Source: a virus
Lineage: Duplodnaviria; Heunggongvirae; Uroviricota; Caudoviricetes
Reading direction: 5' to 3' (one strand)
IMG/VR virus record: IMGVR_UViG_3300037488_000489
Coordinates: 1-53,711 of that record
Length of the DNA: 53,711 bases
Shown: in pieces, positions 22,927-48,066 of the stretch
Layout: each line of letters begins with the position of its first letter
How positions within the stretch are numbered: the stretch's first letter is position 1
Translations under genes and position numbers: made by a program
The notes under the pieces: generated by a model
Database searches by the model: none
The model's input: the letters and a program-made list of their open reading frames with translations, nothing else
What the model was told of the DNA's origin: nothing

Positions 22927-25900
22927 ATGAACGTTACATGTTCTGCAACTCCTTGCCCAGTCATACTTAACAGCACCTGCGTATTTTACGAGGGTGCTAA
23001 TCTTGTTTATACAGGTATCAACACTAATGATTCCATTCAGACAGCTTTACAAAAAATTGATGAAGCTATTGGTAATGGAGGAGGTGGTGGAACCACTGGA
23101 ACCTCAGGTACTTCTGGTACCTCAGGATCAAATGGTTCATCTGGAACTAGCGGTGCTTCTGGATCTTCTGGAACATCTGGTGCTTCTGGATCTTCAGGTG
23201 TAAGTGGTAGCTCAGGGACTTCAGGTTCATCTGGAACACGTGGTACATCTGGTTCAAGTGGAACTAGTGGTGTAAACGGTGCTGCTGGTACATCTGGAAC
23301 TTCTGGTGCATCTGGTTCAAGTGGAACAAGTGGAACAAGTGGAGCTGCTGGATCAAGTGGAACAACTGGTACAAGTGGTACATCTGGTTCACGTGGTACT
23401 TCTGGTACGTCAGGTGTTAATGGAACAAATGGAACAAGTGGTGTGAATGGCTCAGCAGGTTCTTCAGGAACTGCTGGAAGCTCAGGCACATCAGGTATAA
23501 ATGGTACAAGTGGAACTGACGGTACAAGTGGAACAAGTGGTTCATCTGCAACAAGCGGAACCTCTGGAACAAGTGGAACGTCTGGTATAAATGGTACATC
23601 AGGATCTTCAGGAACTACAGGAACTAGTGGCACATCTGGTGTTAATGGAACTAGTGGAACTTCTGGAGAAAGTGGAACATCTGGAACAAGCGGAACTTCA
23701 GGTGAAAATGGTACATCAGGAACAACTGGTAGTGATGGAACAAGCGGAACGTCTGGAACTTCTGCAACAAGTGGTACATCAGGAACAAGTGGATCTACAG
23801 GTACAAGCGGTTCTTCAGGAACAACAGGTACATCAGGGTCTTCTGGCACTGCTGGAACAAGTGGTGTTGATGGAACATCTGGTACTTCAGGATCTGACGG
23901 TACTAGTGGAACTACTGGAACCTCAGGAACTACTGGAACCTCAGGTACTTCAGGGGAAACAGGAACTAGTGGTACTTCAGGAACATCTGCAACAAGTGGA
24001 TCTTCTGGAACTAGTGGGTCTTCTGGAATAGATGGAACAAATGGTACTAGTGGCACTACAGGTACAAGTGGTAGTTCAGGTACATCAGGAAGTGATGGTA
24101 GTAACGGAACATCTGGAACTACAGGAACAAGTGGTACAAGTGGTGAATCAGGATCAAGTGGTACAACAGGTACTTCTGGATCAAGTGGTACAAGTGGTAC
24201 AGACGGTAGTCATGGAACATCAGGATCTACAGGAACTTCAGGTTCATCTGGAATAGATGGTACTAGTGGAACAAGCGGTACTTCTGGAGCACAAGGTGAT
24301 ACATATAGAACAACATCTACTGATAGCTTTACATTAGGTAACTCTGGTACATTAACAGTTGATACAGGTTTAGCATACTCAGTGGCTCAATCAATAATTG
24401 TGGTTTATGATGCTAATAACTTCCAAGAGTGTGAGGTTACTGCTTATAATCCAGCAACAGGTCAATTAAGTTTTGGTGCCCCTTTTAGAACAGTGGGTTC
24501 AGGCACATATACAAGTTGGATAGTAAACCTTGATGGTGCATCAGGTGGTGATGGTAGCTCAGGTACTAGTGGAACATCTGGAATAGATGGTTCTTCTGGC
24601 ACTTCAGGTACTACTGGTACTTCTGGAACTTCTGGTACTGATGGCTCATCAGGCACTACTGGGACTTCAGGCACAAGTGGCACGTCAGGATCTAGTGGAA
24701 CAACTGGAACTAGTGGTTCTAGTGGAACTTCTGGAACTTCTGGTATTGATGGTACAAATGGTACAAGTGGTACAAGTGGAAGCACTGGTACTTCAGGAAC
24801 AAGTGGTACATCAGGTTCTAGTGGTATTGATGGCACTTCAGGGACTTCAGGCTCAAGTGGTACTTCTGGTACAGACGGAACATCAGGAACTGATGGAACA
24901 TCTGGTACTGACGGTACTTCTGGAATAGATGGAACTTCAGGAACAAGTGGAGTTGACGGAACTAGTGGTACAGACGGTACAAGTGGTACAGATGGTACAT
25001 CAGGAATTGATGGAACTTCTGGCACTTCTGGTTCATCTGGTACTAGTGGAACAACAGGTACAAGTGGAACTTCAGCAACTAGTGGCACCTCAGGAACTTC
25101 TGGTTCTTCAGGAACTACTGGCACCTCAGGTACAAGTGGAACTTCTGGTTCATCAGGTACGTCAGGTGTGGATGGTACATCAGGCTCTAGTGGAACAGCT
25201 GGTACTTCAGGAACTTCTGGTATAGACGGTACATCAGGATCTAGTGGTACATCTGGAACATCTGGCACTTCTGGAACAAGTGGTGTAGATGGAACTAGTG
25301 GAACCTCAGGAACATCAGGAACTAGTGGCACAAGTGGAACTAGCGGTACGTCTGGTACTAGTGGTACAACAGGTACATCTGGTAGCTCTACATTATTATA
25401 TGGTACAAGTTCTAATACAATTACACTTCCTCCTGCAGAAGCTACAACTACAAGCACAACTACAACAGCTGCTCCTGTAGCATATGTAATTGATAATGCA
25501 GCTACAGGTACTTCTGGAGAAGCTTGTGTTGGTTCAACTACAACAAGTACTGTTTATGCTTTACCTGGATATACTGTTCCTATGGTAGGAATGATTTTTT
25601 ATAATAGCCCAAGTTTAACAACACCGTTTGTTGGTTCAGTGGGATGGAGAAAATTAACTAAAGATGGTACTGATTATGCAGTAGAAGTAGATGTTAATGG
25701 AGAACTTACAAACTATATAACTTGTCCTTCTGAATATCCTGTTACTTTTTATTTAAAGAAAAAGGCAGCAACAACAGAAGGATCTGTTAAAATAATGTAT
25801 AGTGTAAATGCTGGATCAACATGGAATGAATGGATTGAACTTTCAAATAGTTTTGTTACTGTTAATAGTTATTCTGGTAGTAGTGGATTATTCATTACTG

Positions 25901-26103
25901 CTGGTTCTAGTTTATTAATTGGTTTATTAGATGGTTCTTCAAATAATTTAAACTTTGGAAAAATTGTAGGTAATCCACCAACAGATTGGGATTCTTATTG
26001 TGGTATTAGTATACCGTATAATGTTGGCCTTATAACATCAACTACTGATTTATATCTAAATCTAGATGTACAAGGTCCTTCGTTTGCAATATGTGGATTA
26101 TAA
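22927..26103 (+). CDS. Tail fibre protein 1 with Ser/Thr collagen-like (G-T-S)n shaft, 1058 aa
   Basis: Cys-containing N-terminal attachment-like domain; G-X-Y runs at 23089-24300 and 24535-25389 separated by a 78-aa domain; Thr-rich linker; two C-terminal beta domains. Confidence 0.8.
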   Translation: MNVTCSATPCPVILNSTCVFYEGANLVYTGINTNDSIQTALQKIDEAIGNGGGGGTTGTSGTSGTSGSNGSSGTSGASGSSGTSGASGSSGVSGSSGTSGSSGTRGTSGSSGTSGVNGAAGTSGTSGASGSSGTSGTSGAAGSSGTTGTSGTSGSRGTSGTSGVNGTNGTSGVNGSAGSSGTAGSSGTSGINGTSGTDGTSGTSGSSATSGTSGTSGTSGINGTSGSSGTTGTSGTSGVNGTSGTSGESGTSGTSGTSGENGTSGTTGSDGTSGTSGTSATSGTSGTSGSTGTSGSSGTTGTSGSSGTAGTSGVDGTSGTSGSDGTSGTTGTSGTTGTSGTSGETGTSGTSGTSATSGSSGTSGSSGIDGTNGTSGTTGTSGSSGTSGSDGSNGTSGTTGTSGTSGESGSSGTTGTSGSSGTSGTDGSHGTSGSTGTSGSSGIDGTSGTSGTSGAQGDTYRTTSTDSFTLGNSGTLTVDTGLAYSVAQSIIVVYDANNFQECEVTAYNPATGQLSFGAPFRTVGSGTYTSWIVNLDGASGGDGSSGTSGTSGIDGSSGTSGTTGTSGTSGTDGSSGTTGTSGTSGTSGSSGTTGTSGSSGTSGTSGIDGTNGTSGTSGSTGTSGTSGTSGSSGIDGTSGTSGSSGTSGTDGTSGTDGTSGTDGTSGIDGTSGTSGVDGTSGTDGTSGTDGTSGIDGTSGTSGSSGTSGTTGTSGTSATSGTSGTSGSSGTTGTSGTSGTSGSSGTSGVDGTSGSSGTAGTSGTSGIDGTSGSSGTSGTSGTSGTSGVDGTSGTSGTSGTSGTSGTSGTSGTSGTTGTSGSSTLLYGTSSNTITLPPAEATTTSTTTTAAPVAYVIDNAATGTSGEACVGSTTTSTVYALPGYTVPMVGMIFYNSPSLTTPFVGSVGWRKLTKDGTDYAVEVDVNGELTNYITCPSEYPVTFYLKKKAATTEGSVKIMYSVNAGSTWNEWIELSNSFVTVNSYSGSSGLFITAGSSLLIGLLDGSSNNLNFGKIVGNPPTDWDSYCGISIPYNVGLITSTTDLYLNLDVQGPSFAICGL
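23089..25389 (+). repeat. 9-bp (GGN ACN TCN/AGY) coding tandem repeats, collagen-like G-X-Y
   Basis: Strict Gly at every third residue; synonymous codons are scrambled; interrupted at 24301-24534. Confidence 0.95.
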
Positions 26104-26133
26104 AAATAAAATAAAAATATAAAATCAATATAA

Positions 26134-29100
26134 ATGGCTTATTCTAACATAACAATAACTACTCAAACAGGTCTATCTTTTATCACTGGACAATTTATCC
26201 AGCTAATAGCAGATAGTACTGACTATATTTTTGGTCAGGTAGTTTCTTACAATCCTGCTACAGGAGAGTTGGTTTTTACACCAACCAAATCTGTAGGTAG
26301 TGGTAGTTATAACCTTTGGGAAGTAATTGCTTCTGGTTCTCCTGGTGATGATGGTACATCTGGTACTTCAGGTATTAGTGGTAGTGGTGGAACAGGTGGT
26401 ACTTCTGGTACTTCTGGCACCTCTGGTATTGATGGAACAAATGGAACATCTGGCTCATCTGGTACAAGTGGTATAGATGGCACAAGTGGAACTAGTGCAG
26501 TTGATGGTACCTCAGGTACAAGTGGGACAGCAGGAACTGGTGGAACTAGTGGTACTTCAGGCACCACTGGTACTAGTGGTATTGATGGAACAAGTGGAAC
26601 TGATGGTAGTAATGGTACTTCTGGTACTAGCGGCACTTCAGGACAAACAGGTGATCAATTTGCAACAACTTCTACTACATCATTTACATTAGGTACTAAT
26701 GGAGCCATTGTTGTAGGAACACAACTTGCCTATACAGTAGCTCAATCTATTGTAATAGCTTATGATATAAACAACTTCCAAGAATGTGAAGTGGTATCTT
26801 ATAACCCAGCTACTGGGGGATTGATATTTGGCTCTCCAACTAGAACAGTTGGTAGTGGTACATATACAAGCTGGATTGTTAACTTAGACGGTGCTTCTGG
26901 AGGAGATGGTTCTTCTGGAACATCTGGCACAACTGGTACATCTGGTACATCTGGGACTAGTGGCTCTTCTGGAACTGCTGGAACAACAGGTACAAGTGGA
27001 TCAAGTGGAACATCTGGAACACACGGAACTAGTGGTACATCTGCAATTGATGGTACTAGCGGAACAAGTGGCACAACTGGAACTAGTGGAACGGCTGGTA
27101 CAAGTGGAACATCCGCTATTGATGGAACATCTGGTACAACTGGAACCTCAGGAACTAGTGGTACAACAGGTACAAGCGGTACATCTGGCACAAGTGGAAC
27201 ATCTGCTACCAATGGTACAGGTGGTACAAGTGGATCAAGTGGATCAAGTGGTACATCAGGAATTGATGGTACCAATGGTACAAGTGGAACTACAGGAACA
27301 AGTGGAACCTCAGGATCTTCTGCAACTAGTGGAACATCTGGTACAACAGGTACATCTGGAACTAGTGGAACAAGCGGCTCTTCAGGAACTGCTGGTACTA
27401 CTGGTACTTCAGGTACTTCTGCAATAGATGGAACAAGTGGTACATCTGGCACTACTGGTACGTCTGGTAGTGGTGGTACATCAGGTACTTCTGGAACAAC
27501 TGGTATTGATGGTACTAACGGAACTTCTGGTACAACAGGTACTAGTGGTACGTCTGGATCAACAGGTACTTCTGGCACTAGTGGAACTACTGGTGTAGAT
27601 GGAACAAGTGGTACAACTGGAACAAGTGGATCTTCAGGTACAAGTGCTACTGATGGTACAAGTGGAACTTCAGGTACTACTGGAACTTCAGGCAGTTCAG
27701 GATCTACTGGTACCAGTGGTACATCAGGTACTACAGGAACAAGTGGTACTTCTGCAACTGACGGAACTAGTGGAACTAGTGGCACATCAGGTAGCTCAGG
27801 TACAACTGGTACCTCTGGTACATCAGCCACAAGTGGTACAAGTGGAACTAGTGGTTCTACAGGAACTAGTGGTTCATCAGGAACTACAGGAACAAGTGGG
27901 TCTAGTGGAACTGCTGGTACAACTGGTACATCTGGTACTTCAGGTATCAATGGTATAGCTGGTGGTCAAGTGTATTGGATGAATTTATCTAGTGACACAT
28001 CATCTGCTTTTGGTTCTCCTACATATAAGAAACTTTCTTATGATCCTTCTGGTGGTGCACAACAAACTACAACAGTAAGTGTTGCAGCTAATGCAACTGC
28101 TACAATAGCAACCTTTGCTACAGACTCAAATGTTCCTAACTTGACAAGTATACCTGGTGGTAACTGGGGATTCACAGGTCACTTTTTAACAAATAGTGCT
28201 AATGCAGCTTGGAATATTTATTATGAGCTTTGGAAATATACTACAGGTGGCGTTTCTACATTATTAGGTACAACTAATAGTGTATTAGTTACTTTAGATA
28301 ATGTTGTAGTACAACAAATTTATGCTGACTCTTTTATAGCAGCACAATCATTAAACGCAACAGATAGACTTTTTATAAAGGTTATTGCTACTAATACAAG
28401 CAATCAATCACATAATATAATCTTCTACACAGAGGGTACAACCTTTTATTCATACGTACAGACAACTTTCACTTCTCCTTCTGGAACTAGTGGTACAGGT
28501 GGTACATCAGGAACCTCAGGTTCTTCTGGTACAACTGGCACTTCTGGAACCTCTGGAACAAGTGGTAGCTCTGGAACTTCAGGTTCAACTGGTACAAGTG
28601 GTAGCTCTGGAACAACTGGTACATCAGGTTCTTCTGGTTCATCTGGCTCATCTGCAACTTCTGGTACTTCAGGTACCTCAGGTTCAAGTGGTATTGATGG
28701 AACTAGTGGTTCATCAGGTACAACAGGTACATCAGGTAGCTCAGGAACAACTGGAACAAGTGGTACTGCAGGTACTACAGGTACGTCAGGTACATCAGGA
28801 ACCAACGGTACTGGTGGTACGTCAGGTACTACTGGTACATCAGGCTCTTCAGGCTCTTCAGGTACAAATGGTACAGGTGGTACATCTGGTACAAATGGTA
28901 CAGGAGGAACTTCTGGTACAACTGGTACCTCAGGTACAACTGGTACAAGTGGTTCATCTGGTACAACAGGAACAAGTGGAACTAGTGGAATAAACGGTAC
29001 ATCAGGTACAACAGGTACCTCTGGCACCTCTGGTGTTAATGGATCAAATGGTACTTCTGGAACCACAGGAACTAGCGGTTCTTCTGGCACTGCTGGTACG

Positions 29101-31899: not shown

Positions 31900-31928
31900 T
31901 TTAAAAAACAAAAATAAAAAATAAAGTT

Positions 31929-39002: not shown

Positions 39003-39050
39003 TAGAATGATCTTCTCCCAATTAGGGGGACAGGCATTCTATTTTCTATT
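39003..39050 (+). terminator. Hairpin (terminator or leader) before the lysis cassette
   Basis: TAGAATG...CTCCC-AATTA-GGGGG...CATTCTA followed by TTTTCTATTTT. Confidence 0.45.
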
Positions 39051-39057
39051 TTAAAAC

Positions 39058-39598: not shown

Positions 39599-40190
39599 AC
39601 TGCTTACTGTCATAATTTTTGTTTTACTAGCATTTATATTTTTTCAAAACGATGGATGCACTTACATAGACAAAAAGTCTGAAATAGTAACTGTCCACGA
39701 CACTGCCTGGGAAGTTCATGACTCATTGATTGTTAAGAAGATAAAGATTAAAGAGACAATACATGACACTATTGCAACTCCTCCAGAATATATAGCAGAC
39801 ACAAACTATCCAATTCTTAAGCTTCAATACGAAGCGTTAGTATCAGAGTTCTTAGCTAAGAATGTCTATGCTGACACAGTGAAATTGGATACATTAGGTT
39901 ATGTAGCTGTAGCTGATACAGTGTATAAAAATGAGTTATTAAATAGATCTTACAAATACAACTATAAGATTCCTACAATCACTGTAACAACCACTATTAC
40001 TAAGTATGCTCCTCTTAAAGGGGCTCTATTTATAGGTGGAGGCATTGCAGGTAATAAGAATAATTTAGATGTTTTACAAGGGGGGCTTCTATACAAATCT
40101 AAAAAAGATAAAATATTTGGATTAAATATTGGAATCAACAATAATAGTCAAGTTATATATGGTTTTCAATCATATTGGAAAATTAAATAA
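39591..40190 (+). CDS. Membrane-anchored/exported lysis-cluster protein, 199 aa
   Basis: N-terminal hydrophobic helix ending ..NDGC; C-terminal amphipathic beta strands ending YWKIK. Confidence 0.6.
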   Translation: MNKLLTVIIFVLLAFIFFQNDGCTYIDKKSEIVTVHDTAWEVHDSLIVKKIKIKETIHDTIATPPEYIADTNYPILKLQYEALVSEFLAKNVYADTVKLDTLGYVAVADTVYKNELLNRSYKYNYKIPTITVTTTITKYAPLKGALFIGGGIAGNKNNLDVLQGGLLYKSKKDKIFGLNIGINNNSQVIYGFQSYWKIK

Positions 40191-40195
40191 AACAC

Positions 40196-40357
40196 ATGAA
40201 AAAAATTATTGAACTTGTCAAAAGCCTTTTTGGTGAAGGGTCTTTTGCTAAAAAATTATTAACTATCAAAAGCTTAGAGAAAGAAGTTAAAGCTGTAGTT
40301 AATGGTTCTGAAGAGAAAATAGAAAAAGTTAATCATAAAAAGAAAAAGAAAAAATGA
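40196..40357 (+). CDS. Small basic protein with poly-Lys tail, 53 aa
   Basis: Manual translation MKKIIELVKSLFG...NHKKKKKK*; ATGA overlap with the endolysin start. Confidence 0.6.
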   Translation: MKKIIELVKSLFGEGSFAKKLLTIKSLEKEVKAVVNGSEEKIEKVNHKKKKKK

Positions 40358-40959
40358 ATTTAGATAAATTAAAAGGACACATTCCTGACACAGTGATTGC
40401 TCAAATCCCTGCTGTACAAGAGAAGTTTGAGATCAATACTCCTTTACGTTTAGCTCATTTCTTGGCTCAATGTGGACATGAATCTGGCGGCTTCAAAGCT
40501 GTTTCAGAGAACTTAAATTACGGTGCTGCTGGTTTACAGAGCATCTTTAAAAAATACTTTACTCCTGTGAGTGCTAAAGAGTATGAACGCAAGCCTGAAA
40601 AGATTGCTAACATTGTCTATGCTAATCGCATGGGTAATGGTCCTCAAGCTAGTGGAGAAGGTTGGAAATTTAGAGGTCGTGGTTACATCCAGTTGACTGG
40701 TAAAGATAACTACACAGCTTTTGATAAGTCAGTAGAGGATGATATTGTTGCCACTCCTGATCTTGTAGCTACAAAGTATCCTTTATTATCTGCTGCTTGG
40801 TTCTTCCATAAGAATGGATTACACAAGATTGCTGATGAGGGGGCTACAGATGCTGTGGTTACCAAGGTGACTAAGCGTGTTAATGGTGGAACAATTGGTC
40901 TTCCTGATCGTATCAAACATTTCAACGAATACAATAACTTATTAAACGGAAGCATATAA
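40354..40959 (+). CDS. Glycoside hydrolase family 19 endolysin, 201 aa
   Basis: RLAHFLAQCGHESGGF, FRGRGYIQLTGKDNY, SAAWFF and TKRVNGG motifs. Confidence 0.92.
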   Translation: MNLDKLKGHIPDTVIAQIPAVQEKFEINTPLRLAHFLAQCGHESGGFKAVSENLNYGAAGLQSIFKKYFTPVSAKEYERKPEKIANIVYANRMGNGPQASGEGWKFRGRGYIQLTGKDNYTAFDKSVEDDIVATPDLVATKYPLLSAAWFFHKNGLHKIADEGATDAVVTKVTKRVNGGTIGLPDRIKHFNEYNNLLNGSI

Positions 40960-41261
40960 TGGCAGCAAAAAAAGACTTAAATGTATCAGCAAATCCTTTA
41001 CCTATATCGTTTAAGGAGTTTGCTAAAAACCCAATAGTAGGCACCCTTTTCTTGGTGCTTATTGCTATTTCATACCTATATATAGATGTTCGTACAACAT
41101 TTAAAGAGCAGGCAACTTCTCAGAATGTACGTATTGAAAAGGTGGAAACCAGATTAGATAAAGTGCAAGAAGCATTAAGAGTTAGTGATAGCACTAAGGC
41201 TGTGACTACTACTCAGTTACAAACTCTACAACAATTAGGTGCAATCAAAAAACTTAAATAA
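40959..41261 (+). CDS. TM plus coiled-coil protein (i-spanin-like candidate), 100 aa
   Basis: IVGTLFLVLIAISYLY TM followed by a coiled coil; directly after the endolysin. Confidence 0.5.
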   Translation: MAAKKDLNVSANPLPISFKEFAKNPIVGTLFLVLIAISYLYIDVRTTFKEQATSQNVRIEKVETRLDKVQEALRVSDSTKAVTTTQLQTLQQLGAIKKLK

Positions 41262-41262
41262 T

Positions 41263-41592
41263 ATGAAAAATATATTATATATATTAGTATTATTTGCATA
41301 TGGATGTCAAATTGGTACAGCTCAGCAAGTTGATGGAACAGCTAAGGAAGATAAGGAATTTGAACTTCTACTTAACAAAGTTTCAGAAAACAATAAGGCT
41401 GGTGCAGTTGTACAAGAAGGTGCTACCAAAGCACAAACAAAAATAGTAAACCAAGCAGTTAACCAAATAGTATCGTTAAAAGCAGAGGTTAGTTCATTAA
41501 AATCTGAATTAAATGATGTTAAAAGCAAACTTGATAGTAATCTTAGTGACACTGGTGTCAAATTTAGGTTATTGCCAGTATCCAATCGTTAA
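41263..41592 (+). CDS. Putative lipoprotein with coiled coil (o-spanin-like candidate), 109 aa
   Basis: MKNILYILVLFAYGC lipobox-like signal; long coiled coil; start moved to the ATG at 41263. Confidence 0.5.
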   Translation: MKNILYILVLFAYGCQIGTAQQVDGTAKEDKEFELLLNKVSENNKAGAVVQEGATKAQTKIVNQAVNQIVSLKAEVSSLKSELNDVKSKLDSNLSDTGVKFRLLPVSNR

Positions 41593-41902
41593 GAAGATAG
41601 GAAATGATTCTGTGGTGATAATGACCTTAAAACAGGCAAACACTATAAATGATAAGTTTCAATCTAATCAAACCACAATTGATTCGTTGAAGACGTATGT
41701 TTATATAAAAGACAGTATTATAAGCAAAGACAAAATAACATATGATAGCTTGCATACAGTTACAAATCAGTATAGAGCAAGATATGATGAAAGGTTAAAT
41801 ATGCGTATCCCTGTTGCTAAAGACAATAGTGGATGGGAGTTTGCTCAAAAGATGGTACTGATTGGTGTTATAGTATTACAATTCTTCACTATAAAAAGAT
41901 AA
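41513..41902 (+). CDS. Exported protein with N-terminal signal and C-terminal TM, 129 aa
   Basis: MMLKANLIVILVTLVSNLGYCQ signal-like N-terminus; coiled coil; C-terminal MVLIGVIVLQFF; overlaps the previous gene by 80 nt. Confidence 0.55.
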   Translation: MMLKANLIVILVTLVSNLGYCQYPIVKKIGNDSVVIMTLKQANTINDKFQSNQTTIDSLKTYVYIKDSIISKDKITYDSLHTVTNQYRARYDERLNMRIPVAKDNSGWEFAQKMVLIGVIVLQFFTIKR

Positions 41903-41910
41903 AAATCAAC

Positions 41911-42039
41911 ATGGCAAAGGCTAAAGGAGGATCATCCTCACAAAAAGTAACTTTTGGAAAACGTAAAGGTGGCAAAGCTGCTAAATCACAAGGTCCAAAA
42001 GATAAACCAGTAAAGAAATATAAAGGTCAAGGTAAGTAG
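41911..42039 (+). CDS. Small Lys/Gly-rich basic protein ending KYKGQGK, 42 aa
   Basis: ATG at 41911 after an A-rich leader; the Y(R/K)GQG(R/K) C-terminus is a recurrent phage small-protein motif. Confidence 0.75.
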   Translation: MAKAKGGSSSQKVTFGKRKGGKAAKSQGPKDKPVKKYKGQGK

Positions 42040-42138
42040 TATTACTACCAATATACAAACATTTCTAAACTAAAATCTATAACTAACTTGATTAGAGTTG
42101 AGTTAATTAATTTGGTTATACCAATTTCATAAACCTCA

Positions 42139-42168
42139 TTGGTTATAGTAAAAAACAACATATCTTTG
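42139..42168 (+). promoter_or_regulatory. Promoter TTGGTTAT-N14-TATCTTTG
   Basis: -7 box at 42161-42168; a second TTGGTTAT copy lies at 42112-42119. Confidence 0.7.
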
Positions 42169-42187
42169 AAAATTAATTTTTTATAAC

Positions 42188-42343
42188 ATGGCAATACCAT
42201 CAAGACCCATAGGGCAAGATCCAGTTTCACAACAATTGTGGGCTATATCAAAACAAATGGAACAGTTGATTGGACAAGTTGGAGCTGTAGTTAAAAACAC
42301 TGCAGGCTTAACTACCACAACTACCACTACAACAACCCCTTAA
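42188..42343 (+). CDS. Small protein with C-terminal poly-Thr tail (T9P), 51 aa
   Basis: Manual translation MAIPSRPIGQDPVSQQLWAISKQMEQL...GLTTTTTTTTTP*; downstream of a promoter; Thr codons are varied. Confidence 0.8.
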   Translation: MAIPSRPIGQDPVSQQLWAISKQMEQLIGQVGAVVKNTAGLTTTTTTTTTP

Positions 42344-42354
42344 ATAAAATAAAA

Positions 42355-42552
42355 ATGGCAAATTTACAAACGTTAAAAGCAGAAATAGAAGCAACAGACA
42401 AAGCAATTCAAGAAGCAAGAAAGGCTCAAGTTGATGCACTTATTGCAGCAAAAGCAGCTGCAGAAGAAGCAAAGACTCCAGCAGATTATGAAGCTGAATT
42501 ACAAGCTCAACTTGATGCTAAGAAAGCTCTATTAGCTGGTCTTCAAGCATAA
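42355..42552 (+). CDS. Ala/Lys/Glu-rich coiled-coil protein, 65 aa
   Basis: ORF track; helical composition. Confidence 0.75.
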   Translation: MANLQTLKAEIEATDKAIQEARKAQVDALIAAKAAAEEAKTPADYEAELQAQLDAKKALLAGLQA

Positions 42553-42590
42553 AGATAAAATACATTTATCTAAACCAACAATAACTACAT

Positions 42591-43607
42591 ATGAAGGATT
42601 TAAAATTTATCTGTGCTCAGCCAGATGACACTTACTATACATGGCAAGTACATGCCTGGTTAGAAAGTTTAAAAGAAATTGGGCACTTGGACAAAGCAAT
42701 TGTGTTAATATACACTCCTAGCTTTAGAGAAAAAAGTGATAAATGGCAAAAGATAGTTGATCTGTATCCAGAAGCAGAGTTTGCTTTCTATAAAGACACA
42801 GGAGATGTAAGTAAATACTTAGGAGTTTATATTCCTGTTTTACGTCCATATGTCTTGATGAGATACTTTCAGGAACACCCTGAGATGATAAGCAAAGCAG
42901 TGTTCTACTGTGACTGTGATATTCTGTTTACAGATAAATTTGATGTAGAGAAGTATAGAGACGATGAAGTCTGCTACTTGTCTGACACAAACAGCTACAT
43001 AAATGCTTCATATTTTGATAGTAAAATAAAAGATGTTCTTCCTGCTAAACTGGAAGAATACAAAACTAGAGATGTCCTAGCTGAGATTACAAGCTTAATA
43101 GGAATCAATAGAGAAATAGCAGAAGCTAACAACGAACATTCAGGAGGAGCTCAATACTTCTTAAAGAATGTAGATGCTAATTTCTGGAAGAAGGTGATGA
43201 ATGACTGTATTGTTATTCGTAGCTATCTTCAACATATAAACAAAGAGTTCTTTGGTAGCGAAGATAAAGGATTTCAAAGCTGGTGTGCAGATATGTGGGC
43301 TGTGTTATGGAACCTTTGGTTAAGAGACCAAGAAACTAAGAACATTCCTGAAATGGATTTCTCTTGGGCAACAGACCCAATTGAAAAGGTGGAGAAACTG
43401 GGACTCTTTCATAATGCAGGAGTAACAGCTAAAACAATGTATGGATATCCTGCGTTCTACAAAGGAATATATCATACAGGTAAAAATCCTTTTGATGATA
43501 GTCACATGTATGTAGTACATACTAGTGATGAGTCTAAGAAACATGGTACACACTACTATGTTAAAAAACTATTAGAATTAAAACAAAAATATAACCTAAA
43601 CTATTAA
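42591..43607 (+). CDS. GT-A glycosyltransferase resembling plant protein O-glycosyltransferases (HPAT/peptidyl-serine alpha-galactosyltransferase type), 338 aa
   Basis: FICAQPDDTYYTWQV, LRPYVL..YF..HP, DxD motif YCDCDILF, SGGAQYFL, WCADMWAVLW, and a late HNAG. Confidence 0.6.
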   Translation: MKDLKFICAQPDDTYYTWQVHAWLESLKEIGHLDKAIVLIYTPSFREKSDKWQKIVDLYPEAEFAFYKDTGDVSKYLGVYIPVLRPYVLMRYFQEHPEMISKAVFYCDCDILFTDKFDVEKYRDDEVCYLSDTNSYINASYFDSKIKDVLPAKLEEYKTRDVLAEITSLIGINREIAEANNEHSGGAQYFLKNVDANFWKKVMNDCIVIRSYLQHINKEFFGSEDKGFQSWCADMWAVLWNLWLRDQETKNIPEMDFSWATDPIEKVEKLGLFHNAGVTAKTMYGYPAFYKGIYHTGKNPFDDSHMYVVHTSDESKKHGTHYYVKKLLELKQKYNLNY

Positions 43608-43627
43608 CGTAATTAAAAAACAAAATT

Positions 43628-43813
43628 ATGGGAAGTAATCAAAACTTAAAAGCTTATGTACGCTACGATGGTAGTGGCAGAGTAGTTGCAGGTAGTCTTA
43701 TCTTTAGAAGAAAGAAGCCTACAGTTGGAAGATGGCATGAAATTGCTATAACAGAATGTTGTGAGTATGTTCCTACAACTACTACTACAACCACTACTGC
43801 TGTTCCTGAATAG
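43628..43813 (+). CDS. Small protein with ECC and poly-Thr tail (PT8AVPE), 61 aa
   Basis: ORF track; LKAYVRYDGSGRVV core. Confidence 0.8.
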   Translation: MGSNQNLKAYVRYDGSGRVVAGSLIFRRKKPTVGRWHEIAITECCEYVPTTTTTTTTAVPE

Positions 43814-43830
43814 TATAAAAACCAAACAAA

Positions 43831-44235
43831 ATGGCAAAATCACTGTTCCCTGATGAGATGATGAAATCAGGAGAATTAAACTTGGAAACAATAGCTGGGA
43901 AGCTTACGTATTTTCATGAGCAATTACATTTAACTCATTGGCAGACAAAAAGTTATGCTGAGCATCAAGCTCTAGGAGGATTGTATGATTATGTACATGA
44001 TTTTAAAGATGGTGTAATTGAGAAGCTTATGGGTTATACAGGTAAAAGACCTGCTCCATATAAGATAGAACCTCTTACAAATTGTACAGGGAATGAATGT
44101 GTGTCAAATCTTTTATCTTTTGCATCCTCTTTAAAAAGCTATGCTGAAGCAAATAGCTATCACGATATAGCAAATCTAGCAGATGCGTTGTCTGGTGAAG
44201 CTGCAAAAACCAAATACTTATTAACCTTGTCTTAA
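43831..44235 (+). CDS. Ferritin/Dps-like four-helix protein (DUF5856-like), 134 aa
   Basis: LHLTHWQTKSYAEHQALGGLYD...D...E motif; C-terminal KYLLTL. Confidence 0.8.
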   Translation: MAKSLFPDEMMKSGELNLETIAGKLTYFHEQLHLTHWQTKSYAEHQALGGLYDYVHDFKDGVIEKLMGYTGKRPAPYKIEPLTNCTGNECVSNLLSFASSLKSYAEANSYHDIANLADALSGEAAKTKYLLTLS

Positions 44236-44525
44236 TGCAAATTAATAAAAAGTATTTCCCCAAGATAATGCAAGACAATGAAATGATTTATTTTGCACAT
44301 CTTGAGGGGATTATTGATTCAATAGATGAGCTGTCTACATTAGAGATAGTTAAAAATCCTCGCTCATATCATTTTAGATTGGCTCCTAGCGTACCAAAAT
44401 ACACTGAGTCTCTTTTACAGGAGCTATTGAAGTTTCATAATATGTTTAAAATTAGACTAGAGTTATCTAAAAGTATTAAAAATTCATCTACTATTACATT
44501 TGAAATAAATTTGGAAGATTCGTAG
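44235..44525 (+). CDS. Hypothetical protein, 96 aa
   Basis: TAATG-coupled to the previous gene. Confidence 0.7.
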   Translation: MQINKKYFPKIMQDNEMIYFAHLEGIIDSIDELSTLEIVKNPRSYHFRLAPSVPKYTESLLQELLKFHNMFKIRLELSKSIKNSSTITFEINLEDS

Positions 44526-44541
44526 TAAATACATATCTTCG
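44511..44541 (+). promoter_or_regulatory. Promoter TTGGAAGA-N15-TATCTTCG
   Basis: TAnnTTCG variant of the -7 box with TTG 20 nt upstream; precedes the basic-protein cluster. Confidence 0.55.
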
Positions 44542-44565
44542 CTATTAAACCAAAAAAATAAAGTT

Positions 44566-44835
44566 ATGTCAGAAGAAATTCAAGAAGTTGGACAAGAAGC
44601 TCCAAAATTTGACCCTAATAAGAAATATACATGGGCTGGTGATGTTAGTATTGTAGTTTCTGGTGCAGAGTTTGGTGCAATCTTAAATGCTTTACGTGGT
44701 GTTACATCAACTCAAGAAGCACAAGCATTATTTTTAGCTGCAGAAACTGCAGATAAAGTAGAAGCTATTTTAGCAAGAAATGTTGAAATTGGTATTATTG
44801 TAGAAGCTCCTGAAGCTCCAAAAGCAAGTTTATAA
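44566..44835 (+). CDS. Hypothetical acidic protein, 89 aa
   Basis: ORF track; A-rich leader. Confidence 0.7.
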   Translation: MSEEIQEVGQEAPKFDPNKKYTWAGDVSIVVSGAEFGAILNALRGVTSTQEAQALFLAAETADKVEAILARNVEIGIIVEAPEAPKASL

Positions 44836-44845
44836 AATAATCATC

Positions 44846-44992
44846 ATGGCTACTGCTAAGAAAAATTGGATACAAGGTGCTGTTAACCCTAAACATAAGG
44901 GTTATTGCACTCCAATGACCAAAGCTACATGCACTCCTAAAAGAAAGGCATTAGCTAAAACATTCAAGGCAATGGCTAAGAAACGTAAGTAA
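44846..44992 (+). CDS. Small basic protein MATAKKNWIQGAV..., 48 aa
   Basis: Manual translation; TAATG overlap with the next gene. Confidence 0.75.
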   Translation: MATAKKNWIQGAVNPKHKGYCTPMTKATCTPKRKALAKTFKAMAKKRK

Positions 44993-45372
44993 TGGCAACT
45001 ATTAAAAAAGCTGGTCCTTGGAATCCTCAAAAAGCTACAGCTTATGTAGGTAAGGGTGTTCTTAGAACTGGTGGTAATATAACTCCTGTTCCTAATGGTC
45101 ATCTAATTAAAAAAGATGGTACATCATTAAAGGATGGTGGTAAGGTTGTTAAAGCTGGTGGTCAAACACACAAAGTGTTTAAAAAGAAAGTTGATAAAGG
45201 TATAGGCAATAAGGGGGATATAGTTGTAGATCATACAGCTGGTCCCTCTGCTGGTAAATGGGATAAAATTAATCTCACAAAGAAGTCAAGAGCTAAAACT
45301 GTTAAACAAGGTGTTGCATCTGTTAAGAAATGGCACAGAGATAATCCTAATTATAAAAGCAAAAAGAAATAG
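44992..45372 (+). CDS. Lys-rich putative internal virion protein (MATIKK; 3 x xGG motifs), 126 aa
   Basis: LRTGG, LKDGG and VKAGG motifs. Confidence 0.75.
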   Translation: MATIKKAGPWNPQKATAYVGKGVLRTGGNITPVPNGHLIKKDGTSLKDGGKVVKAGGQTHKVFKKKVDKGIGNKGDIVVDHTAGPSAGKWDKINLTKKSRAKTVKQGVASVKKWHRDNPNYKSKKK

Positions 45373-45374
45373 CC

Positions 45375-45677
45375 ATGGCTACAGTTAAAAAGGTTATGAA
45401 GTCTGGTGGTAGTACTCCTGCTTGGACTCGTAAGGAAGGAAAGAATCCTGAAGGAGGATTGAATGCTAAAGGTGTAGCAAGCTATAGAGCTGCTAATCCT
45501 GGAAGTAAACTAAAAACTGCTGTTACTACTAAACCTTCTAAACTTAAAGCTGGATCTAAGGATGCTAAAAGACGTAAGTCTTTCTGTGCTAGAATGTCAG
45601 GAGTTAAAGGACCTGCAAAGAAACCTAACGGTGAACCAACAAGAAAAACGTTAGCATTAAGAAAATGGAATTGTTAA
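45375..45677 (+). CDS. Lys-rich protein with DUF6321-like domain, 100 aa
   Basis: AWTRKEGKNPEGGLNAKG..SY...NPGS...RRKSFCARM...RKWNC pattern. Confidence 0.75.
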   Translation: MATVKKVMKSGGSTPAWTRKEGKNPEGGLNAKGVASYRAANPGSKLKTAVTTKPSKLKAGSKDAKRRKSFCARMSGVKGPAKKPNGEPTRKTLALRKWNC

Positions 45678-45689
45678 AAAAATAATATT

Positions 45690-46112
45690 ATGGCAACGGT
45701 AAAAAAAGCTGTAAAAGCTCAAAACGGTAAAGATGTCCCTAAAGGATATGTCCGTGGTGAAATGACTAATAGACTATATAAGAAAGAAGATATGGCTAAG
45801 CATGAAGCTGGAATGGCTGATGCTTTAGACAGACAAGCTGGTCTTGGTAAATATGCTCCTAAAAAGAATCCTGCTATTAAAAACAATCCTTTCAAAGAAG
45901 CGATTTCTAACTTCTCAGAAGCTGAAATAAAGAAAGCAAAAGCAGCTCCTAAAAAGAAAATGAAAGCAGGCGGTATGTTGAAACGTGCTGATGGTTCTTA
46001 TTCTAAAAGAGGATTATGGGACAACATTCGTGCTAACAAAGGCTCAGGTAAAAAACCTACAGCTGCTATGTTAAAACAAGAGAAAAAAATTAACGCTAAA
46101 ACTAAAAAATAA
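45690..46112 (+). CDS. Lys-rich putative internal virion protein (MATVKK), 140 aa
   Basis: AQNG and MKAGG motifs; GLWDNIRA.KGSG module. Confidence 0.75.
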   Translation: MATVKKAVKAQNGKDVPKGYVRGEMTNRLYKKEDMAKHEAGMADALDRQAGLGKYAPKKNPAIKNNPFKEAISNFSEAEIKKAKAAPKKKMKAGGMLKRADGSYSKRGLWDNIRANKGSGKKPTAAMLKQEKKINAKTKK

Positions 46113-46117
46113 ATAAA

Positions 46118-46558
46118 ATGGCAACTGTTAAAAAAATGAAGAAAGCCCAAGACGGTAAATTGATAGATGCTTTTAAGAAGGCTTCAAACTCATCAGCTGT
46201 TAAAGCAAAAGAAAATTCAGCTTATACTAAAAGTTCTTTTAAAACTGCAGATTCATTACGTTCAGCATTTCCTAAATTAGGTTCAAAAGGATTAAAAGGA
46301 TTAGTAGAAGAAAGAAAATCCAATAAAGCAAAAGCTGATTCTATTGAAGGTGCTGTTGAGAAACGTATAGGTGTTCCTAGAAAGTACAACATGTATGACA
46401 ACAAGAAAAATGGCGGACCAGTTAAAAAAGCTAAATCTGGTGGTTCATTTCCTGACTTAAACAAAGATGGTAAAATCACTAAGGCTGATATTTTAAAAGG
46501 TCGTGGTGTTATTGCTAAGAAAGGTGCTATGATTAAGAAATCTATTAAAAAGAAATAA
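46118..46558 (+). CDS. Lys-rich putative internal virion protein with an EF-hand-like FPDLNKDGKITKADIL module, 146 aa
   Basis: AQDG, KKNGG, AKSGG and AKKG motifs. Confidence 0.75.
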   Translation: MATVKKMKKAQDGKLIDAFKKASNSSAVKAKENSAYTKSSFKTADSLRSAFPKLGSKGLKGLVEERKSNKAKADSIEGAVEKRIGVPRKYNMYDNKKNGGPVKKAKSGGSFPDLNKDGKITKADILKGRGVIAKKGAMIKKSIKKK

Positions 46559-46559
46559 A

Positions 46560-47033
46560 ATGGCAACTATAAAGAAAATAAAGAAAGCTGAAGATGGGCT
46601 TAGAACAGGTCAATACAAAAGACTTGGTAGAATTGCAGAAAAGAATCCAGAAAGAGCTGAAAAAGTAGCTGGACGCATGACTAGAAAAGCTGATCGTATT
46701 GAACGTGGTAAAGATATTGCAAGCCCTCGTGCAAACCTTATGATGAACATGAATAATGCAGCAGAAAAGAGAGAGCGTCTAATGATGGACATGAGGAAAG
46801 AAAAGAATGGCGGTAAAAATAAGAAGTTTGAATCTGGTGGTAGTCTATCTGGATTAAATGCTTCTAATAAGCGTGTTGGTCCTGTAGATCCTAAAGGTGC
46901 TTATACTAAAGTTCAAAAGAGAACATTAGCAGGTGCTAAAGGTAAAGCTGTTTTAAAGAAAGATAAACAATTAGGTGCTACTAAAATGAAAAATGGTGGA
47001 CCTATGAAAAAATGCAAGTATGGCTGCAAGTAA
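46560..47033 (+). CDS. Lys/Arg-rich putative internal virion protein (MATIKK), 157 aa
   Basis: AEDG, EKNGG, FESGG, MKNGG and CKYG motifs. Confidence 0.75.
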   Translation: MATIKKIKKAEDGLRTGQYKRLGRIAEKNPERAEKVAGRMTRKADRIERGKDIASPRANLMMNMNNAAEKRERLMMDMRKEKNGGKNKKFESGGSLSGLNASNKRVGPVDPKGAYTKVQKRTLAGAKGKAVLKKDKQLGATKMKNGGPMKKCKYGCK

Positions 47034-47034
47034 T

Positions 47035-47193
47035 ATGACTGCTGGCAAAGCTAAAAAATCAGGTGCACCTCGTAAGGCACCAAAGGTACCAGCTCCTAAA
47101 CCAATCAATGGTAATTATATGAAGGAGTCTGATACAAAGTTACAAAGAAAGAGTCCTATGCTTCCTATGAAGCAGAAGAGATTATCAAAATAA
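47035..47193 (+). CDS. Small Lys/Pro-rich basic protein, 52 aa
   Basis: Manual translation MTAGKAKKSGAPRKAPKVPAPKP...; starts 1 nt after the previous stop. Confidence 0.7.
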   Translation: MTAGKAKKSGAPRKAPKVPAPKPINGNYMKESDTKLQRKSPMLPMKQKRLSK

Positions 47194-47320
47194 TTGTCTT
47201 CTCCTGCATCCCATAAGAACTGCACGCTCAGGTTGATCCTCCAGTTTCTAGAACTGTGGTCTTAAAGAAGAGTCATTCCCCCCTATAGTCTCAGTATTGT
47301 AGGTCTGCTCCTTCTGGGAG
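47194..47320. ncRNA. Candidate structured non-coding RNA / 3' UTR
   Basis: ~47% GC (hand count 60/127) non-coding island with local hairpins, before a terminator; no family recognised. Confidence 0.3.
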
Positions 47321-47326
47321 TAAAAG

Positions 47327-47351
47327 AAAAGCCCCTATTTGGGGCTTTTTT
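47327..47351. terminator. Bidirectional terminator at the + / - strand switch
   Basis: AAAA-GCCCC-TATTT-GGGGC-TTTTTT; overlaps the 3' end of the GT31-like gene. Confidence 0.85.
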
Positions 47352-48066
47352 CATTTAGAAGGGTATGTAAATATTTCATAAAGCTTTTATGTCTTATGTA
47401 ATGGTGTGTTACATGTTTAGATAAAAAGGTAACATCTTCTTCTGTAAGTTCAGCTAGCATCTTAGGTACATAACTATCTCCTTCTTTCCAAAGGTCATTG
47501 AAATATCTTTGAAAGGGAAACCAACCATTTAGATATAGTTTATGTAAAACATTTGAATCTAAAAACTTATCATAGATTTTTATCTGGTTCTCTTTTAACC
47601 ATGTGCCCATACAAACATCTTCATACCCATAACCTTTTACAGTCATAGGTTGACACTTCTTAATTAACTGTGGAGATATAAAATAACCACATCCTCCAGA
47701 TGGATAATCTAGTTCAGGTTCTTTTGTATATGATCCTTTCATACTATATCCATATACAGCATCTTTACTAAAGAATGTAACTACTTCTTCAAATAAAGGA
47801 ATGTTAAGTATGGCATCATCATCAATAAAGACTAACCAATCATATGCATCAAATTGGTCAGTAGTCCTAACCAGGTTGATGAAGTTGACTGTCTTCTCTT
47901 CATTGCTTTGATAATCATCTTTGTCAGAACAAGATATCTCATTAGGTCTCCCTGTGAGTTTATCTGTAAGACATACATAATCAAGAGCAGATAACCACGT
48001 TTCAAGGCAGTTATCTACTCTGTCAGTATGCTTATGACTAGTTTTTAATACAATTTTGTATTTCAT
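47335..48066 (-). CDS. GT31-like (Fringe / core-1 beta-1,3-galactosyltransferase fold) glycosyltransferase, 243 aa
   Basis: YDWLVFIDDDAIL, YPSGGCGYFIS, EDVCMGTWL and a late HHY motif. Confidence 0.75.
   Translation of the reverse strand: MKYKIVLKTSHKHTDRVDNCLETWLSALDYVCLTDKLTGRPNEISCSDKDDYQSNEEKTVNFINLVRTTDQFDAYDWLVFIDDDAILNIPLFEEVVTFFSKDAVYGYSMKGSYTKEPELDYPSGGCGYFISPQLIKKCQPMTVKGYGYEDVCMGTWLKENQIKIYDKFLDSNVLHKLYLNGWFPFQRYFNDLWKEGDSYVPKMLAELTEEDVTFLSKHVTHHYIRHKSFMKYLHTLLNEKSPK

Follow-up and report, generated by a model that had tools for sequence, protein, structure and literature searches.

Candidate enzyme modules for the modification of collagen-like fibres and other tail proteins in the genome of a tailed phage

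Gene content of the fibre and enzyme locus

The stretch of DNA analyzed here (hereafter, the window) comprises the first 53.7 kb (53,711 nucleotides) of the 117,711-bp IMG/VR virus record IMGVR_UViG_3300037488_000489, a member of Caudoviricetes rated complete by CheckV, whose major capsid gene, recognized by a Crass_capsid match, lies beyond the window with its open reading frame (ORF) ending near genome position 90744. An earlier note on this DNA had proposed that positions 22927-48066 encode a system for O-glycosylation and sulfation of the virion, together with the Ser/Thr-rich proteins that accept these groups, and all the elements it had named were found where it had placed them. Gene content, family memberships, folds and co-occurrence across phages were established for these elements, and they point, with a fair degree of probability, to three cytoplasmic enzyme modules, each of which would modify one particular kind of low-complexity sequence in the tail proteins of the phage.

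Two fibre genes are located on the plus strand. Fibre 1 (22927-26103, 1058 aa) is composed of six proline-free G-[TS]-[ST] segments, a spacer of ~80 aa, a TTTSTTTTAAP linker and a C-terminal globular domain. Fibre 2 (26134-31899, 1921 aa) carries in its N-terminal part (residues 1-1056, 26134-29301) further G-[TS]-[ST] segments, interrupted twice by the spacer domain and once by a larger globular domain, followed by a Gly/Asn/Ser-rich pseudo-repeat (29302-31596) and, at the C-terminus, by a Peptidase_S74 intramolecular chaperone domain with the SDARLK site (31597-31899; PF13884, 5e-10), which resembles that of trimeric fibres. The G-X-Y runs, in which X is mainly Thr/Ser and Y mainly Ser/Thr in both proteins, add up to 684 residues with no proline in fibre 1 and to 711 residues with a single proline in fibre 2, and both fibres matched the Pfam Collagen family (E values of 1e-91 and 7e-78, respectively). 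The codons of the repeat are mixed, Ser being encoded by both TCN and AGY and Gly by four codons, which indicates that the G-X-Y repeat is held at the protein level. Uninterrupted G-X-Y runs and a trimerising terminal domain, the two hallmarks of a collagen-like fibre, are thus both present, the helix folding of proline-free G-T-S being putative. The pseudo-repeat of fibre 2 (20 matches to a motif of approximately GGxxNxAxG-x-[YF]S, with a GG spacing of 14-18 residues) has a distinct composition of 21% G, 14% S and 12% N.

Between positions 22927 and 29301, the collagen-like runs are interrupted 14 times, each time by the same single Gly-to-Ala step (GTS-A-[TIV]-[SDN]-G); these interruptions look regular and tolerated, rather than the outcome of random decay. 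A third G-T-S collagen-like fibre of 598 aa, with 288 G-X-Y residues and a probable S74-type C-terminus, is encoded beyond the window, this fibre and proteins with poly-Thr linkers being found at genome positions 95930-97726, 97714-100358 and 103966-108603.

An enzyme operon runs on the minus strand, convergent with the fibre genes, and encodes a sulfotransferase, a 288-aa protein, a 128-aa nucleotidyltransferase, an adenosine 5'-phosphosulfate (APS)-kinase-like protein and a 1165-aa fusion protein. The fibre genes had been described as directly abutting this operon; they do lie beside it, with a 114-aa ORF and a bidirectional intrinsic-terminator-like hairpin (32297-32326, a 12-bp stem between an A run and a T run) in between. 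Membrane-spanning segments are absent from all enzymes of the system, so all of them should act in the cytoplasm, where virions assemble and fibres fold.

The fusion protein and its TibC-like domain

The 1165-aa fusion is made up of four domains, all encoded on the minus strand: a class I S-adenosylmethionine-dependent methyltransferase domain (residues 1-170, 37811-38320; PF13489/PF08241 at residues 16-115), a domain of the GT-A glycosyltransferase (GT) fold (residues 171-490, 36851-37810) with an invariant DxD motif (IDSD), a GT4 domain of the GT-B fold (residues 491-800, 35921-36850; PF00534, 3e-11, match at ~520-770) and, finally, a domain of the TibC/Aah family (residues 801-1165, 34826-35920; TIGR04414, PDB 4RAP). 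The GT-A domain had no Pfam match, either alone or together with its homologues, and the search of its profile against PDB sequences was also empty; it resembles retaining GT6/GT8 enzymes, its structural model (folded with 16 homologues, predicted local distance difference test [pLDDT] 85.9) matching GT6 alpha-1,3-Gal/GalNAc transferases with an E value of 1e-8.

The TibC/Aah-like assignment made in the earlier note holds: residues 835-1163 aligned to PDB 4RAP with an E value of 7.6e-45 and scored 247.8 bits on the NCBIfam model TIGR04414 (curated cut-off 200), covering profile positions 29-373 of 374. Residues highlighted in the TibC structure paper (PMC4358343) were mapped onto the phage domain by HMMER alignment. 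The catalytic base Asp-110 of TibC corresponds to Asp902, the residues Thr-226/Lys-230/Trp-305 to Thr1014/Lys1018/Trp1082, and the iron-finger residues Cys-339/342/358/370 to Cys1117/1120/1136/1148, all of which are invariant in 19 phage homologues. Judged by its sequence, the domain belongs to the family of bacterial autotransporter heptosyltransferases (BAHT). No autotransporter gene was found near the TibC-like gene.

Divergent from the fusion gene lies a gene for a DUF6165 protein (38359-38727, plus strand), a family with no predicted function that accompanies the fusion gene in 35 loci, down to ~46% identity, and that could be a partner or regulator.

Association of TibC-like genes with Ser/Thr-rich collagen

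The comparison across phages covered ~300 viral loci. One set of 80 was retrieved via the TibC-like domain (49 non-redundant, 40 of these with at least 3 kb of downstream sequence), a second set of 78 via the fibre spacer domain, a query blind to the enzymes, and a third set of 80 via the sulfotransferase (65 non-redundant); 100 loci of at least 12 kb drawn from the TibC-picked and spacer-picked sets served as the control for the sulfation module.

In the 80 TibC-picked loci, the GT-A, GT4 and TibC-like parts travel together, with the methyltransferase domain present in about half. A Ser/Thr-rich, proline-free collagen ORF, for which the criteria were convergent orientation, ≥100 G-X-Y residues, a Ser/Thr fraction ≥0.45 and a start no more than 6 kb downstream, was found in 30 of the 40 loci with sufficient sequence, and no Ser/Thr-rich collagen ORF was found upstream (0/39). 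Approached from the fibre side, the Ser/Thr fraction of the collagen in spacer-picked loci proved bimodal (≤0.32 or ≥0.48, with two values in between), allowing Ser/Thr-rich and ordinary collagens to be compared. Within the Ser/Thr-rich group, 20 of 30 non-redundant lineages possess a TibC-like gene, be it in the flank or in another part of the record, whereas in the ordinary-collagen group the gene is missing from the whole record in all 19 lineages (Fisher p = 2e-6, ancestry not corrected for). The ten Ser/Thr-rich lineages lacking the gene are represented by records that are 9-61% complete, six of which end at the fibre.

The pairing extends to jumbo-phage contigs of up to 321 kb, to two bacterial-bin contigs (39-41% identity) and to a cultured virus, Microcystis phage Mel-JY01 (PP395634.1), in which the collagen partner, a frame with 606 G-X-Y residues, is found 1.7 kb upstream of the fused gene. 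That plus-strand frame (GTSGTSGTDGSSG...), at positions 2-3049, lies beneath two annotated minus-strand genes for 'hypothetical proteins', which are probably antisense frames of a collagen-like gene crossing the start of the record. Classical BAHT genes (≤36% identity) have no collagen neighbour, and among bacterial bins the closest TibC-like matches come from short contigs attributed to Sediminibacterium and Chitinophaga. Overall, the association persists to ~50% enzyme identity and across phage types. The tie between these enzymes and Ser/Thr-rich virion proteins, first suggested for this single genome, is therefore borne out by conserved adjacency and by composition-specific co-occurrence in many phages.

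The putative sulfation module and the repeat it follows

The sulfotransferase (273 aa, 32334-33155, minus strand) matched PF13469 with an E value of 3e-18 (67 bits against a cut-off of 27). It carries both the PRSGST loop, which corresponds to the 5'-phosphosulfate-binding (5'-PSB) motif, and an RDLRD...S motif corresponding to the 3'-phosphate-binding (3'-PB) motif, as is characteristic of sulfotransferases dependent on 3'-phosphoadenosine 5'-phosphosulfate (PAPS), and its Pro11, Arg12, Gly14, Ser15, Thr16 and Arg115 are invariant in 10 homologues. It is nearest to the carbohydrate sulfotransferase NoeE (3e-9), with a weak match to tyrosylprotein sulfotransferase. The sulfotransferase is present in a single copy and no PAPS reductase was found in the phage genome, so that PAPS, if made, would have one phage-encoded user.

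The P-loop kinase (145 aa, 34389-34826, minus strand) matched the APS kinase family PF01583 (7.5e-9; 36.2 bits against a cut-off of 21.1), over profile positions 4-97 of 152 only, and fell below the cut-offs of the NCBIfam APS-kinase models. Its best PDB matches are APS kinases (6e-6), the stand-alone ones among them being longer, with 175-211 aa. With a score above the Pfam cut-off and APS kinases as its nearest solved relatives, the kinase can still be regarded as CysC-like, as had been noted before. The adjacent HxGH nucleotidyltransferase (128 aa, 34018-34404, minus strand; GRWQPWHAGH ... ISATQIR; PF01467, 6.6e-5) is a candidate small ATP sulfurylase. A canonical ATP sulfurylase, recognizable by Sat/CysD homology, was not detected, there being no PF01747 match in the genome. 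Most of the 107 longer homologues of the nucleotidyltransferase carry a fused APS-kinase domain, and one PHROG family spans both proteins, an arrangement paralleled by the fused or paired layout of PAPS synthases; the sulfurylase role is suggested by this recurrent fusion and by the gene neighbours. On balance, the chances that the 128-aa protein is an ATP sulfurylase appear even.

A competing interpretation removes both proteins from PAPS synthesis, seeing in them a nicotinamide-riboside kinase and a nicotinamide mononucleotide (NMN) adenylyltransferase that restore nicotinamide adenine dinucleotide (NAD), or else a kinase feeding the sulfate assimilation of the host. The nearest solved or curated relatives of the nucleotidyltransferase are indeed archaeal NMN adenylyltransferase and NadM, some sources name its fused homologues nicotinamide riboside kinase, and published work treats phage cysC as a gene of sulfate assimilation (PMC10914622). 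The kinase, however, exceeds the Pfam cut-off for APS kinases, its match taking in the DGD..R and FS..R.. region; among loci picked by TibC or by the fibre, it occurs only together with the sulfotransferase or where the locus ends earlier; it is present in 39 of the 65 sulfotransferase-picked loci; and the phage possesses a sulfotransferase and no PAPS reductase. This interpretation is therefore considered unlikely, and the genomic context argues for a use of phage cysC other than sulfate assimilation.

The fourth member of the set, the 288-aa protein (33155-34021, minus strand), is a constant partner of the sulfotransferase. The gene had been listed as GT9-like, an assignment that is weak (hhalign E value of 0.003, NCBIfam RfaQ 0.0026, and an Atlas lead), even though the gene itself is present as described; searched with its homologues, the protein gave no significant Pfam match, and the profile search against PDB sequences was empty.

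The distribution of these genes differs from that of the TibC-like gene. In the TibC-picked and spacer-picked sets, the kinase, the nucleotidyltransferase, the 288-aa protein, the sulfotransferase and a small hydrophobic DUF2061 protein (38764-38982, plus strand), which co-occurs with the set formed by kinase, nucleotidyltransferase and sulfotransferase, are confined to a subset of loci, namely those whose fibres carry a Gly/Asn-rich repeat. Among the control loci, 17 have the module and 14 of these also have the repeat, compared with 1 of the 83 that lack the module (p = 2e-13, ancestry not corrected for). Of the 65 non-redundant sulfotransferase loci, 56 contain the 288-aa gene and 39 the kinase, while 17 have a TibC-like gene and 9 a Ser/Thr-rich collagen, so the sulfation module is mostly found without TibC or collagen; in 40 of the 65, a large ORF with the Gly/Asn repeat is present, usually ending directly before the sulfotransferase. 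The sulfotransferase, GT9-like and PAPS genes therefore constitute a module separate from the TibC-collagen pair, following a Gly/Asn-rich repeat of 14-17 residues, and the Gly/Asn/Ser-rich repeat of fibre 2 is its candidate target. Since fibre 2 bears both types of repeat, both modules adjoin it here.

Accordingly, the single pathway of initiation, extension, methylation and sulfation that had been envisaged must be divided: the enzymes do follow fibre repeats, but the sulfation genes belong to a different module and a different repeat. The same applies to the proposed check of co-occurrence between G-T-S collagen and the full enzyme set, which came out positive for the GT-A/GT4/TibC core only. 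In one 262-kb record classed as a provirus (84% complete), the nucleotidyltransferase, GT9-like, sulfotransferase and DUF2061 genes lie beside short Ser/Thr-rich collagen ORFs, and no TibC-like gene was found anywhere in that record.

The two distributions also bear on which stretch of fibre 2 the TibC-like domain would recognize. TibC and Aah glycosylate Ser in beta-helical repeats, and the beta-solenoid-like Gly/Asn-rich region lies directly before the operon; it might thus be this region, and not the collagen, that serves as target. Given that ~40 TibC-bearing lineages have collagen fibres without a Gly/Asn-rich repeat, and that this repeat instead follows the sulfotransferase/GT9-like pair, such a role for it appears very improbable.

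Another alternative is that the enzymes remodel the envelope glycans of the host (lipopolysaccharide, capsule or glycoproteins), against superinfection or for release, the link to the fibres reflecting a shared late-gene neighbourhood. Serotype-changing phage glycosyltransferases are well known, the usual substrates of GT4 and GT9-type enzymes are glycans linked to lipids, the nearest relative NoeE acts on carbohydrate, and the enzyme operon is opposite in direction to the fibre genes. Yet enzymes of the TibC family act on proteins, it is the composition of the fibre repeats and not the mere presence of a fibre that the modules follow, no enzyme has a membrane segment or a hydrophobic stretch resembling an export signal, and the pairing spans unrelated phage types, probably with different hosts. 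Host remodelling is consequently regarded as quite unlikely, in favour of enzymes directed at the phage's own tail proteins.

A SERGT/HPAT-like enzyme and poly-Thr proteins

Further downstream, a 338-aa GT-A glycosyltransferase (42591-43607, plus strand; phrog_4417; invariant DxD, CDSD) is flanked by two genes for short poly-Thr proteins. Together with 16 homologues, the enzyme gave no Pfam or NCBIfam match, and the profile search against PDB sequences was empty. Its model (pLDDT 87.7) is closest in fold to SERGT1 (E value of 1.8e-9, template modelling [TM] score 0.58) and to HPAT1/2 (TM 0.57-0.59), compared with 0.41-0.50 for GT8 enzymes, the PDB matches of the model being GT-A enzymes that include GT8 glycogenin and the UGGT catalytic domain. 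The likeness to HPAT/SERGT claimed from the sequence is thus sustained at the level of the fold, with no membership at the level of sequence. Profile-profile comparison revealed no relation between this enzyme and the GT-A domain of the fusion protein.

Both mini-genes are real and belong to conserved families, in which an N-terminal domain of ~45 residues is followed by poly-Thr and, in relatives, by T7-AAP repeats and variable C-terminal domains. The first (51 aa, 42188-42343, plus strand) has the N-terminal domain MAIPSR..LW.ISKQLE.L and a T9P tail; the second (61 aa, 43628-43813, plus strand) has the N-terminal domain LKAYVRYDGSGRVVAGSL...ECC followed by PT8AVPE. The family of the 61-aa protein was seen only in loci with the 338-aa enzyme, and in nearly all of those.

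Outside the two mini-proteins, poly-Thr linkers were detected in fibre 1 and, beyond the window, in six or more proteins of the tail module. A highly conserved 379-aa tail-module protein (genome 92637-93776) ends in ITSTTSTTTTIWPSTSTTTTLIP and has more than 3500 homologues, the best 120 listed being 83-100% identical; searches of PDB and the Atlas gave no match for it. Its C-terminal poly-Thr is retained in all 18 relatives examined, though the sequence of the tail varies, and the 338-aa enzyme is present in the same 18 relatives. The 379-aa protein was briefly considered as the major capsid protein, a candidate dropped because the Crass_capsid match belongs to the other ORF, ending at ~90744. 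Near the third collagen-like fibre mentioned above, beyond the window, four tail-module proteins have poly-Thr linkers, one of them, of 1543 aa, having three tracts.

The crAss-type major capsid protein has no Thr-rich tract, the poly-Thr tracts being confined to tail-module proteins, so that the idea of a glycocalyx on the capsid is not supported.

The Fringe-like gene and other genes of the genome

A Fringe/GT31-like GT-A enzyme (243 aa, 47335-48066, minus strand; DDD motif; PF02434, 3e-7, 30.4 bits against a cut-off of 21) had been proposed as the elongating glycosyltransferase of the system. Its gene closes a minus-strand operon of replication genes and, among 30 records searched, is present only in two relatives with 96% identity; it is missing both from 20 further records that have a TibC-like gene and from 8 that do not, 11 of these records being at least 90% complete. 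Confined in this way to nearly identical phages, the gene finds no support as part of a conserved system.

Upstream of the fibres, positions 312-22786 encode four giant proteins (1341, 867, 3834 and 1416 aa). In crAss-like phages, genes of giant size include those for virion-packaged cargo and RNA polymerase. The PHROG database returned no match for these four proteins, for the two poly-Thr mini-proteins or for a coiled-coil protein. Between positions 44846 and 47033 (plus strand), six small, strongly basic and paralogue-like proteins follow one another in a run, with MATxKK starts (MATAKK, MATIKK, MATVKK); one of them (45375-45677) gave matches to phrog_4689 and to the C-terminal ends of several larger PHROG families.

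A nucleotide search of GenBank phages with positions 31900-48100 found no related sequence. Scanning of the window revealed a Bacteroidota-type promoter pattern at a frequency not above chance, and sigma-70 promoter matches were below the shuffled expectation.

Proposed roles of the three modules

Taken together, the evidence is consistent with modification of tail proteins before or during assembly. In the first module, the TibC-like domain would place a first sugar on the Ser/Thr hydroxyls of the proline-free Gly-Thr-Ser repeats, the glycan then being extended by the GT4 and GT-A domains and capped by the methyltransferase domain; that the fibres are the substrate of this module is likely. 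In the second, the APS-kinase-like protein, probably with the 128-aa nucleotidyltransferase as a small ATP sulfurylase, would make PAPS, which the sulfotransferase and the GT9-like protein may use to decorate the Gly/Asn/Ser-rich repeat of fibre 2, either on a sugar added at the repeat or on a side chain; fibre sulfation by this route is put forward tentatively, at slightly less than even probability. In the third, the SERGT/HPAT-like enzyme would glycosylate poly-Thr linkers, a role for which the arguments are about equally balanced; its candidate acceptors are the mini-proteins encoded on either side of it, fibre 1 and a number of tail-module proteins from other parts of the genome. In this scheme every acceptor, every sugar and sulfation itself are putative. 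The likely benefit would be a stable, hydrated proline-free collagen helix and protease-resistant, hydrophilic linkers; a role of the modifications in host recognition is possible.

Several observations weigh against the scheme or parts of it. The evidence for modification is genomic. A qualifying collagen gene within 6 kb downstream is missing in 10 of the 40 TibC loci, and the most distant TibC homologues (35-40% identity) have no collagen gene. The ordinary-collagen fibres used for comparison are more distant relatives (36-53% spacer identity) and ancestry was not corrected for, so that a few events of gain or loss could yield the tables given above. For the third module, the presence of the 338-aa enzyme in all 18 relatives leaves its link to poly-Thr without a contrast between presence and absence. 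In the second, the nucleotidyltransferase is nearest in sequence to archaeal NMN adenylyltransferases and not to ATP sulfurylases, and the 288-aa protein, in a weak profile alignment, has an invariant Gly-Lys at the position of the Gly-Asp catalytic base of GT9 and TibC.

The TibC-like domain itself also departs from its model. Its thumb beta-hairpin is 10 residues shorter than that of TibC (deletions of 6 and 4 residues), and the hydrophobic thumb tip (Phe-265, Val-266) is replaced by Cys and Thr; TibC acts on a folded beta-helix as a stand-alone dodecamer built by this hairpin (PMC4358343), whereas the phage domain is embedded in a chain of 1165 aa. In addition, Arg-286 of TibC, which contacts N1 of adenine and is said to determine in this way the use of ADP-sugars (PMC4358343), aligns with high posterior probability to Thr1063, a Thr conserved with hardly an exception among the phage homologues. 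Genes for GmhA, a PfkB kinase and a short-chain dehydrogenase/reductase (SDR) epimerase are all missing from the phage. On account of this substitution and of the lack of heptose genes, the donor sugar, and hence the heptose assumed in the earlier note, is not established, and neither is the label 'heptosyltransferase' for this member of the family.

Because the evidence is a genomic association uncorrected for ancestry, and because collagen is missing from part of the TibC loci and the Gly/Asn repeat from part of the sulfotransferase loci, it might be argued that enzymes and fibres have no relation of enzyme to substrate, forming a swappable cassette of fibre and tailoring genes with a separate product, e.g. 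a free or lipid-linked sulfated glycan. The association, however, depends on composition, beyond position, and persists to ~50% enzyme identity and across phage types, which leaves such a cassette with very little probability compared with modules acting on the tail proteins themselves.

A wider generalization would be that tailed phages infecting Bacteroidota and other aquatic bacteria build sulfated fibre glycans with their own, hitherto unrecognised 128-residue ATP sulfurylase, paired with or fused to a minimal APS kinase, that dense O-glycosylation by a fused enzyme of the TibC type stabilises proline-free collagen, and that phage 'cysC' mostly serves virion decoration; in this full form it is doubtful. 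Should the fibres carry glycans or sulfate, a chemistry that is unreadable from the fibre sequence would govern host recognition, stability and antigenicity, and predictions of structure and host range made from sequence only would miss this chemistry in widespread aquatic and crAss-like phages. If proline-free Gly-Thr-Ser collagen needs sugars to fold, this would represent a new route to triple-helix stability, relevant to the design of collagen-like materials. If the kinase and nucleotidyltransferase form a new PAPS synthase, the way phage cysC is counted in studies of viral sulfur cycling would change. The presence of the TibC-collagen pairing in the cultured Microcystis phage Mel-JY01 makes the idea directly testable.

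Comparison with known systems

The closest parallel is offered by the TibC-TibA and Aah-AIDA-I pairs of E. coli (PDB 4RAP/4RB4). BAHT enzymes are cytoplasmic protein Ser O-glycosyltransferases encoded next to the genes of their substrates (PMC4358343, PMC8498110), and those of the TibC family glycosylate, and thereby stabilise, a neighbouring repetitive protein. The phage system shares with them a homologous catalytic domain, with the catalytic Asp, the phosphate-binding Thr/Lys, the sugar-contacting Trp and the four-Cys finger, as well as the arrangement of a cytoplasmic enzyme encoded beside a repetitive Ser-rich surface protein, hyperglycosylated in E. coli and a putative acceptor here. It differs in that the phage domain is the last of four in a fusion, with a short thumb and a Thr in place of Arg-286, its neighbour is a proline-free collagen-like fibre and not an autotransporter, and there is no phage-encoded heptose pathway.

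Glycosylation of phage virions has a precedent, which tempers the remark in the earlier note that no characterised example of this completeness was known in tailed phages: glycans on the capsid and on the C-termini of tail-tube proteins of mycobacteriophages were reported in 2023 (Freeman et al., Cell Host Microbe, as cited in PMC12619734 and PMC12801897). The literature search found no paper linking BAHT-type enzymes, collagen-like fibres or sulfotransferases to phage virions. As described in these citing papers, the glycosyltransferases of mycobacteriophages act on Ser/Thr-rich tails of structural proteins of the same phage, which recalls the 379-aa protein ending in poly-Thr; the enzyme families and the host phylum are different, and here long collagen repeats and linkers are the proposed acceptors, a sulfation module is added, and the evidence is genomic.

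Collagen-like regions that are O-glycosylated are known from spores, where the Thr-rich collagen-like regions of BclA (Bacillus) and BclA3 (C. difficile), the latter by the dedicated enzyme SgtA, receive glycans that are thought to help keep a helix lacking hydroxyproline hydrated and stable (PMC8968730, PMC7157674). The phage repeats lack proline, the enzymes acting on BclA proteins are unrelated to TibC, and the decorated surface is that of a spore instead of a virion. The BclA repeats themselves contain proline (GPT). A multidomain enzyme that builds and methylates the glycan of a virus's own structural protein is A064R of chlorovirus PBCV-1, in which two glycosyltransferase domains are combined with a methyltransferase domain; this protein comes from a eukaryotic virus, the capsid glycan is N-linked and the domains are unrelated to those of the phage fusion.

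For the second module, PAPS synthases acting with NoeE/NodH in the sulfation of rhizobial Nod factors provide the nearest counterpart, having in common with it an APS kinase type and a nucleotidyltransferase fold beside a sulfotransferase, without a reductive branch. The phage nucleotidyltransferase, in contrast, consists of 128 residues and is NMN adenylyltransferase-like, the kinase is truncated to 145 residues, and the proposed acceptor is a fibre. For the third, the plant and algal enzymes SERGT1 (GT96) and HPAT (GT95) are the best fold matches, likewise of GT-A type, and themselves start O-glycans on hydroxyl-rich extended repeats of structural proteins; the likeness is at the level of the fold, with 13-15% identity and no Pfam match, and the proposed phage acceptor is poly-Thr in the cytoplasm and not Ser-Hyp4 in the Golgi. 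Seen against these systems, protein O-glycosylation by the BAHT family and glycosylation of phage virions are of kinds already known, while a PAPS synthase of a new kind and the prospect of sulfated virions are possibly what this phage adds to them.

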